A stretch of DNA of 1,140 nucleotides from NCBI RefSeq assembly GCF_003334315.1, contig NZ_QOWR01000122.1, one strand, 5' to 3'. Position 1 is the first letter of the stretch. Every line of letters begins with the position of its first letter. A program made the translations under genes and the position numbers. Source of the stretch: Escherichia coli. GTDB taxonomy: Bacteria > Pseudomonadota > Gammaproteobacteria > Enterobacterales > Enterobacteriaceae. Of the stretch, positions 1 to 1,140 are shown piece after piece. Below the pieces are notes generated by a model. It ran no database searches. It saw only the letters and a list, made by a program, of their open reading frames with translations, and was not told where the DNA came from.

Positions 1-18
1 GGTTTAATGCGCCCCGTT

Positions 19-94
19 GCCCGGATAGCTCAGTCGGTAGAGCAGGGGATTGAAAATCCCCGTGTCCTTGGTTCGATTCCGAGTCCGGGCACCA
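19..94 (+). tRNA. tRNA-Phe, anticodon GAA at 52..54, 76 nt with encoded 3' CCA
   Basis: Read directly: the sequence folds as a canonical cloverleaf with a 7-bp acceptor stem (GCCCGGA/TCCGGGC), D-arm GCTC/GAGC, anticodon stem GGGGA/TCCCC with loop TTGAAAA, T-arm CTTGG-TTCGATT-CCGAG, then ACCA. I recognise it as identical to enterobacterial tRNA-Phe (pheV/pheU type); the two loci cannot be told apart from this window. Confidence 0.97.
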
Positions 95-103
95 AATTCA
101 TAT

Positions 104-131
104 AAACGGACCTCCACGGAGGTCCGTTTTT
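104..131 (+). terminator. Rho-independent terminator of the tRNA-Phe transcript
   Basis: Read directly: inverted repeat AAACGGACCT (104..113) pairing with AGGTCCGTTT (120..129) around a short CCACGG loop region, followed by a T-run (127..131, TTTTT, then CGTTT), about 10 nt after the tRNA 3' end. Confidence 0.8.
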
Positions 132-217
132 CGTTTCAGGGCGCCACGATTTAAGCGTTCTGCCTCCAAATCAATTCTACCGAACTCAACCAGATTCTCC
201 CCACATCAACCCCATTG

Positions 218-242
218 TGTGGGTATAATTGCGGGTATACCC
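218..242 (+). promoter_or_regulatory. Candidate sigma70 promoter for the integrase: consensus -10 TATAAT at 224..229 inside a repeat and palindrome cluster
   Basis: Read directly: perfect TATAAT hexamer at 224..229, 62 nt upstream of the integrase ATG. No convincing -35 (TTGACA-like) lies 16-18 bp upstream, and the TG dinucleotides at 217..220 are not at the extended -10 position. The assignment is motif-only. Confidence 0.35.
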
Positions 243-278
243 CAGTTCGACAGAATTTGTACCCTCTTTAACGCATTC

Positions 279-284
279 AGAAGG
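279..284 (+). promoter_or_regulatory. Ribosome-binding site (Shine-Dalgarno AGAAGG) for the integrase
   Basis: Read directly: purine-rich AGAAGG ends 7 nt before the ATG at 292. An in-frame TGA at 286..288 blocks any upstream extension of the ORF, so 292 is the first available start. Confidence 0.55.
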
Positions 285-291
285 CTGAACT

Positions 292-1140
292 ATGGCACTG
301 ACTGACGCAAAAATCCGGGCTGCAAAGCCCACTGACAAGGCTTATAAACTCACTGACGGGGCCGGCATGTTCCTGCTGGTTCATCCTAATGGTTCCCGTT
401 ACTGGCGTCTCCGTTATCGTATTCTGGGTAAGGAGAAAACCCTGGCACTTGGTGTGTATCCGGAAGTTTCTCTCTCCGAAGCTCGTACAAAACGGGATGA
501 GGCCCGAAAACTGATTTCGGAGGGGGTTGACCCTTGCGAACAGAAAAGAGCTAAAAAAGTAGTCCCTGATTTACAACTCTCTTTTGAACATATTGCACGA
601 CGCTGGCATGCCAGTAATAAACAATGGGCACAATCACACAGCGATAAAGTACTCAAAAGCCTCGAGACACACGTTTTCCCCTTTATCGGCAACCGGGATA
701 TCACAACACTCAGTACCCCGGACCTGCTTATCCCTGTTCGTGCTGCAGAAGCTAAACAAATTTATGAAATCGCCAGTCGTCTGCAGCAAAGGATATCCGC
801 TGTAATGCGTTATGCCGTACAGTCTGGCATCATCAGATATAATCCTGCTCTGGATATGGCTGGCGCATTGACCACGGTAAAACGCCAGCATCGCCCCGCT
901 CTTGACCTTTCACGCCTGCCTGAACTTCTGTCGCGTATTGGCAGTTATAAGGGGCAGTCTGTCACCCGGCTTGCCGTTATGTTGAATCTGCTGGTGTTTA
1001 TTCGCTCCAGTGAACTCAGATATGCCCGCTGGTCAGAAATTGATATTGACAATGCCATGTGGACTATTCCAGCCGAACGCGAACCTCTGCCTGGCGTAAA
1101 ATTCTCACACCGGGGCTCCAAGATGCGAACACCACATCTT
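292..1140 (+). CDS. int: Tyrosine-type site-specific integrase, P4-like family (N-terminal 283 aa; 3' end beyond the window)
   Basis: Open frame from ATG 292 to the window end with no stop (283 codons). My translation begins MALTDAKIRAAKPTDKAYKLTDGAGMFLLVHPNGSRYWRLRYRILGKEKTLALGVYPEVSLSEARTKRDEARKLISEGVDP, which matches the conserved N-terminal arm-DNA-binding domain (DUF4102 type) of P4-like integrases. It later reads LLVFIRSSELRYARWSEIDIDNAMWTIPAER..KMRTPHL, which fits tyrosine-recombinase box I. Position directly downstream of and co-oriented with a tRNA is typical for this family. Family membership is from recognition, not a database search. The supplied ORF track omits this frame, presumably because it has no stop inside the window. 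Confidence 0.93.
   Translation, partial: MALTDAKIRAAKPTDKAYKLTDGAGMFLLVHPNGSRYWRLRYRILGKEKTLALGVYPEVSLSEARTKRDEARKLISEGVDPCEQKRAKKVVPDLQLSFEHIARRWHASNKQWAQSHSDKVLKSLETHVFPFIGNRDITTLSTPDLLIPVRAAEAKQIYEIASRLQQRISAVMRYAVQSGIIRYNPALDMAGALTTVKRQHRPALDLSRLPELLSRIGSYKGQSVTRLAVMLNLLVFIRSSELRYARWSEIDIDNAMWTIPAEREPLPGVKFSHRGSKMRTPHL

Follow-up and report, generated by a model that had tools for sequence, protein, structure and literature searches.

The probable attL junction of a P4-type integrase island at a tRNA-Phe gene of Escherichia coli

Background

The tRNA-Phe genes pheU and pheV of Escherichia coli are hotspots for the integration of genomic islands in which a P4-type integrase is the only conserved gene, the attachment (att) repeats are 23 bp or 19 bp long, and the cargo is modular and bounded by insertion sequences (IS) (PMC11537424, PMC6174562). 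Here we analyze a stretch of 1,140 nucleotides (nt) of E. coli DNA (contig NZ_QOWR01000122.1; hereafter, the window, meaning the whole stretch at its full length) that contains a tRNA-Phe gene followed, on the same strand, by the beginning of a gene for such an integrase (int). With high confidence, we interpret the window as the left attachment site (attL) junction of a genomic island that was site-specifically integrated at the 3' end of an E. coli tRNA-Phe gene, most probably pheU.

The closest described counterparts come from two comparative studies, one of the genomic islands at pheV (GI-pheV) and other islands with the P4-type integrase, intP4, for which five allele groups, intP4.1-intP4.5, are distinguished (PLoS Genet 2024; PMC11537424), and one of the pheU and pheV sites of Shiga toxin-producing E. 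coli (STEC) (Gut Pathog 2018; PMC6174562). In the GI-pheV/intP4 islands, as in the window, the P4-type integrase gene lies directly 3' of tRNA-Phe, and attL consists of the last 23 nt of the tRNA (PMC11537424). The original prediction made for this DNA had described tRNA-Phe loci as well-known island hotspots, which agrees both with these publications and with genome counts: at least 80% of the window is present in 3357 of the 5426 complete E. coli genomes (62%), and the junction of dicD, pheU and int occurs in 1311 of the 5426. The combination of tRNA-Phe with a P4-type integrase is already known, ordinary and very common. What the present analysis adds is, first, a clean dissection of the junction, including a P4-like geometry of the arm-type sites and a candidate -10 element located within one of these sites, and second, the observation that 'empty' loci carry the arm of an older element. 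Neither addition would surprise specialists, and their importance lies mainly in annotation.

Results and discussion

The junction of tRNA-Phe with the integrase gene

ARAGORN identified one tRNA in the window, a tRNA-Phe with the anticodon GAA and an encoded CCA end (positions 19-94, plus strand), which matches the Rfam family RF00005 with 68.3 bits (E = 1.6e-14; gathering score 29) and is exactly identical to the pheU region of E. coli K-12 MG1655. The last 23 nt of this gene (72-94, plus strand), TTCGATTCCGAGTCCGGGCACCA, comprise the attL core, of which E. coli ZF34, a strain with an identical window, has a 22-nt copy at the opposite end of the island. The integrase gene follows in the same orientation, with an ATG at position 292, 198 nt past the last base of the tRNA, and its frame stays open for 283 codons up to the end of the window (292-1140, plus strand). 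The complete tRNA, the shared strand and the spacing that had been noted for this pair are thus all correct.

Translation, Pfam domains, alignment with the integrase (Int) of phage P4 and matches to solved structures concur in identifying this gene as the first 283 of the 420 codons of a P4-family tyrosine integrase. The encoded part extends through the arm-binding domain (amino acids (aa) 3-88) and the central domain (aa 98-192) into the catalytic domain, the beginning of which contains Arg238 and Lys277. In ZF34 and in HCP30S3_I2, another strain with an identical window, RefSeq annotates a gene of 1263 bp with the same start codon, encoding a tyrosine recombinase of 420 aa. In this full-length protein, Pfam detects Arm-DNA-bind_3 (aa 3-88, E = 2e-29), Phage_int_M (aa 98-192, E = 2.8e-27) and Phage_integrase (aa 211-383, E = 8.3e-17); in PHROGs, the protein belongs to phrog_1. 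A search of phage genomes aligned it with P4 Int at 54.9% identity over 97% of the length (E = 8e-153), and in the pairwise alignment, all six catalytic residues, R238, K277, H341, R344, H368 and Y378, are identical in P4 Int, with R238 and K277 located inside the window and the other four read from the ZF34 copy. The protein also matches solved N-terminal and central domains of homologues, labelled 'CP4-like integrase', with E-values of about 1e-31. The NCBIfam model PRK09692 yields a domain score of 250 bits, below its cut-off of 434 bits, so that the protein is a relative that falls outside that exact subfamily. The assignment as an integrase is beyond chance, and the label 'P4-type', given earlier from the letters alone, is borne out by the three Pfam domains, the level of identity and the shared catalytic residues. 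Truncation or degeneration of the gene was looked for as well, and the ZF34 copy proved to be of full length, with all catalytic residues retained.

The island in ZF34 and the older scar at pheU

The chromosomes of three E. coli pig isolates with complete genomes, ZF34, ZF31 and HCP30S3_I2, each contain the entire window at 100% identity. Loci were compared in chromosomal extracts of ZF34 (L001, 41 kb), K-12 (L002), HCP30S3_I2 (L003), TUM1880 (L004) and strain 20.1 (L007). ZF34 is the identical genome in which the right end of the island is intact. A direct repeat of the tRNA 3' end farther downstream, which had been anticipated for an island of this kind, is present in this genome as a 22-nt copy from which one G is absent, located 11,558 bp downstream, just before cadC (L001 31630-31651); we consider it the right attachment site (attR). 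It was recovered by reading and alignment, given that a search of ZF34 that allowed only mismatches returned the tRNA itself alone, attR having a 1-nt deletion. The attR string TTCGATTCCGAGTCCGG-CACCA has been tabulated identically for many GI-pheV islands (PMC11537424).

Comparison with an unoccupied locus delimits the inserted segment. In K-12 MG1655, the order is dicD-pheU-yjdQ-cadC, without intervening island DNA, and relative to this arrangement the ZF34 island is an insertion of 11,558 bp, the ends of which are the tRNA 3'-end repeats. These repeats bound DNA that is absent from K-12, in line with the earlier proposal of site-specific integration at the tRNA. Conserved core genes behind the integrase, which had been named as the finding that would speak against an island, were also looked for: K-12 lacks the genes that lie downstream of the integrase, and these genes vary between strains.

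The course of events would be the following. The final ~23 nt of the tRNA would also have been present in the attachment site of the element (attP), and the P4-family tyrosine integrase would have recombined within this core, thereby restoring an intact tRNA. The element DNA would now stand directly after the tRNA, in the order terminator, tandem arm repeats overlapping the int promoter, and int, with the 22-nt core copy, attR, marking the far end of the island.

The unoccupied locus itself carries traces of an earlier insertion. The segment that follows the attL core (95-208, plus strand), which we take as the integrase-proximal att arm (P' arm), is repeated with ~97% identity on the right-hand side of attR in ZF34 and recurs after pheU in K-12. 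There, a near-identical counterpart of window positions 95-208 is followed by the first ~40 nt of an int gene and then by the integrase pseudogene yjdQ (L002 4150-4551, minus strand). The K-12 locus thus shares with the window the segment behind the tRNA and the start of an int gene but has the integrase and all cargo deleted, whereas the gene in the window is intact. All sampled 'empty' pheU loci (rows H75-H84) match the window up to position ~208, and the yjdQ scar of ZF34 is located on the downstream side of attR (L001 31652-32010). From these alignments, we conclude that the 'empty' pheU of K-12 is a scar left by an older, related element and that the 11.6-kb island of ZF34 lies in tandem ahead of this decayed integrase scar. 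As an 'empty' pheU retains the integrase-proximal arm of such an element, new islands come to be inserted in tandem. By the same token, E. coli in general seems to have a pheU terminator that derives from an element. Furthermore, the ZF34 island is flanked by direct repeats that extend beyond the 23-nt core to ~137 nt and are ~97% identical (L001 20072-20208 and 31630-31766); therefore, the island could also be lost or exchanged by homologous, RecA-mediated recombination, independently of the integrase.

Several observations weigh against the interpretation of the window as the attL junction of an island at pheU. The cargo and attR lie outside the window, which holds only two thirds of int, the C-terminal catalytic half being intact in the identical public genomes. 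The island gives no compositional signal, with a G+C content of 50.3% (L001 20095-31629) compared to 50.9% in the upstream core (the downstream cad region of ZF34 has 46.4%), so that composition-based island finders would miss it; a deviating base composition is frequent in islands but not indispensable. The 18 nt that precede the tRNA in the window are common to pheU and pheV, and a 99.6%-identical copy with an identical Int protein is found at pheV in TUM1880, so that the locus is assigned from the 100% matches only.

The equality of G+C content between island and core, together with the presence of the integrase in 62% of the complete genomes, would fit the alternative that the integrase is a fixed chromosomal gene beside the tRNA, with no island and with an adjacency that did not arise by integration. 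This alternative is almost inconceivable given that K-12 and many other strains have no integrase but only the scar, that the insertion ends in tRNA 3'-end repeats, both of which are adjoined by arm-type sites, and that the genes behind the integrase differ from strain to strain.

The choice between pheU and pheV has to be made from more distant sequence. The ~48 nt located 5' of the tRNA, consisting of TTGACG, a 17-nt spacer, TTTAAT and a GCGCCCC stretch, are common to both loci (L001 and L004 19971-20018); the predicted promoters of pheU and pheV are near-identical, and short windows are unable to separate the two loci. The window could accordingly stem from pheV, in the arrangement yqgA-pheV, and head a larger island of the GI-pheV type with virulence, metabolic or candidate defence cargo. 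At pheV of TUM1880, the Int protein (WP_063078140.1) is indeed identical, and the int segment corresponding to positions 292-1140 is 100% identical, with 5 intergenic bases differing. We regard an origin from pheV as rather unlikely: the 5 differences in the TUM1880 copy fall within positions 104-198, whereas all three complete genomes that are 100% identical to the window place it at pheU. The surroundings in ZF34 and in HCP30S3_I2, dsbD-dicD(yjdC)-tRNA-Phe, are those of the pheU locus. Because every perfect match sits at pheU, the locus of the window most probably is pheU, between dicD/yjdC and cadC.

Arm-type sites and comparison with P4

A repeat search revealed two tandem 12-bp repeats, TGTGGGTATAAT and TGCGGGTATACC, upstream of int (218-241, plus strand), which are predicted to be arm-type binding sites of the integrase. 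Over the 41 kb of the ZF34 locus, there are exactly 4 copies of their consensus, TGNGGGTAYA, compared to 0.35 expected, and none of 100 shuffled sequences reached 4 copies. They are arranged as two tandem pairs, one ~50 nt before int and the other on the left side of the attR core, at a distance of 50-75 nt. A further, inverted copy with one mismatch, AGAGGGTACA, was found by motif search just 5' of int (258-267, minus strand); matches with one mismatch are not rare (18 found, 12.5 expected), and a single inverted copy is weak when taken alone. Thus, both ends of the island appear to have kept the sites expected for a recombination complex bound by Int.

Within the first tandem repeat lies the hexamer TATAAT (224-229, plus strand), a candidate -10 element of the int promoter noted on reading the sequence by analogy with P4. 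A strict scan of the window for sigma-70 promoters returned no full -35/-10 pair; nevertheless, the perfect hexamer and the P4 precedent suggest that int is transcribed from this position, in which case the binding of Int to the arm repeats might regulate its own promoter.

Two further inverted repeats were observed in this region. An imperfect 14-nt inverted repeat, AATTCTACCGAACT (173-186) and AGTTCGACAGAATT (244-257), 86% complementary, brackets the tandem arm repeats together with the candidate -10 element and may represent a further protein-binding site of the att arm. A weaker inverted match, between positions 194-205 and 218-229, looks like a reversed arm site.

The arrangement closely resembles that of the satellite phage P4 (reference records NC_001609 and X05947). 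In P4 attP, a tandem 12-bp pair lies 54-77 nt to one side of the core, and another tandem pair lies ~112 nt to the other side, before int; as in our element, P4 also has an inverted arm copy by the start of int and the -10 element of the int promoter within the first P' arm repeat. Our element and P4 have in common the distances of the arm pairs from the core (about 50-75 nt for one pair and ~110-125 nt for the pair on the opposite side), the domain architecture of the integrase and the location of the att core within the 3' end of a tRNA gene. The arm consensus differs, TGNGGGTAYA here compared to GGGGGCAYA in P4. The targets differ as well: P4 integrates at leuX (tRNA-Leu), whereas the target of our element is tRNA-Phe, unlike P4's own attachment site.

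These similarities, and the 55% identity between the two integrases, raise the question of whether the element is an integrated P4-like satellite, that is, a helper-dependent parasite of another phage. This is highly improbable. When seven P4 proteins (alpha, sid, delta, psu, epsilon, cII and vis) were used as tblastn queries at E <= 1e-3, no match was detected in the ZF34 island or in the first 20 kb of the islands of TUM1880 and strain 20.1, int being the only P4 gene with a match; the annotated cargo of ZF34 consists of toxin-antitoxin systems, IS elements and genes of the 'yee' type. A tblastn search of the ZF34 island with K-12 AlpA likewise revealed no homologue, and with these searches we rejected the P4-like satellite as a candidate.

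The relationship with the CP4 elements of K-12 is more distant for the integrase. IntA of CP4-57 belongs to the same integrase superfamily, with 35.7% identity, and our integrase is much closer to P4 Int. With CP4-44, the common feature lies in the cargo: its CbtA/CbeA (YeeV/YeeU) module is also present in the ZF34 island.

Cargo of the island in ZF34 and other strains

Between int and attR, the ZF34 island encodes transposase fragments, IS1, Phd/Doc, a fragment of a fimbrial gene, a YeeP-like GTPase, DUF905 and DUF932 proteins, an antirestriction protein, a RadC/JAB protein, DUF987, CbeA/CbtA, DUF957 and DUF4942 proteins, as well as pseudogenes. It is a small, decayed, IS-riddled island with a CP4-44-like 'yee' module and no virulence genes. 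The 'yee' module is known from pheU, pheV and selC islands (PMC11537424, PMC6174562), and the published GI-pheV and STEC islands share with ZF34 the YeeP-like GTPase, YeeS, YeeT, YeeU/YeeV, the KlcA antirestriction protein and DUF957. Unlike GI-pheV, the genomes identical to the window carry the island at pheU, where it measures 11.6 kb, is decayed and has no virulence genes.

The original prediction had hinted at novel or defence-related cargo, an expectation that the ZF34 island does not support. A PADLOC analysis of 10 cargo proteins identified no recognised defence system, only weak partial matches, namely, of Doc to PDC-M59B (1.9e-07) and of the GTPase to LeoBC (8.7e-09, over 100 aa), and two hypothetical proteins, of 316 aa (L001 24084-25034, minus strand) and 225 aa (26143-26820, plus strand), had no PADLOC or NCBIfam match. 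With partial matches of this kind and hypothetical proteins without an NCBIfam match, ZF34 was rejected as a defence island.

Neither a tblastn search with P4 vis and K-12 AlpA nor the annotation revealed an excisionase of the Vis/AlpA type in the ZF34 island, although one of an unrecognised type is conceivable. Single mismatches in att repeats of this kind greatly lower excision (PMC11537424). With no excisionase found and with the 1-nt defect in attR, the ZF34 island probably is immobile at present.

That the cargo would lie beyond the window and be of the variable kind was anticipated, and the four islands compared indeed all differ. In HCP30S3_I2 (L003 16848-26108), the same int and Phd/Doc are followed by at least 5 copies of IS1 amid fragments of yqi-type fimbrial usher and chaperone genes, glgS and yqiJ, and the island matches the integrase-proximal part of the ZF34 island up to the IS1 disruption. 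The yqi-type fimbrial genes, glgS and yqiJ presumably sit elsewhere on the K-12 chromosome. This arrangement suggests that an IS1-mediated rearrangement broke the right part of the HCP30S3_I2 island. The pheV island of TUM1880 carries genes for malic enzyme, DcuC, a porin and an autotransporter, and near int (L004 21957-25040), it encodes two hypothetical proteins, of 281 and 178 aa, for which no PADLOC or NCBIfam match was found, as well as a PDDEXK-like protein of 407 aa with a match to PDC-S26 (E = 7e-34), a candidate defence family of PADLOC. In the bovine strain 20.1, where int is 98% identical and located at pheU, the cargo includes ISEc8, espL2, nleB, nleE and efa1/lifA (L007 20693-41201); unlike the harmless cargo of ZF34, this set comprises virulence genes, for type III effectors and lymphostatin.

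Given this variability, the source genome of the window might carry cargo other than that of the three identical genomes, including an undescribed defence or virulence module; the integrase-proximal position holds candidate defence genes elsewhere, such as the gene of the PDC-S26-like PDDEXK protein in TUM1880. A related possibility is that selection maintains the integrase as a platform that captures modules in tandem, considering that the integrase and both sets of arm-type sites are intact while the cargo decays and that an identical protein is found at pheU and pheV. We give these suggestions a small chance, and the attL junction of a pheU island remains the preferred interpretation of the window.

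Other features of the window

Upstream of the tRNA, the window begins with what on reading appears to be the 3' part of the tRNA-Phe promoter and leader (1-18, plus strand), including the -10-like hexamer TTTAAT (3-8) and the GC-rich GCGCCCC; the candidate -35 element TTGACG is separated from this hexamer by the 17-nt spacer and lies beyond the start of the window. The match to the consensus suggests that this is the promoter of tRNA-Phe. Downstream of the tRNA, a terminator scan and RNA folding identified an intrinsic terminator of the tRNA transcript, with an 11-bp stem, a 4-nt loop and a U-run (104-134, plus strand). The hairpin (104-129), after which the T-run follows, has a folding energy of -18.4 kcal/mol (z = -4.77), which was not equalled by any of 200 shuffled sequences.

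At a permissive Rfam threshold, the window contained no RNA family other than tRNA; a minus-strand match to Plastid-ycf2 (E = 0.77) is far below the gathering score and was dismissed as a chance hit. Open reading frames of up to 96 aa on the minus strand within int were likewise discarded as spurious, being antisense to a well-supported gene. The start codon of int is preceded, at a distance of 8 nt, by the Shine-Dalgarno-like sequence GAAGG (279-283, plus strand), a putative ribosome-binding site noted on reading the sequence.

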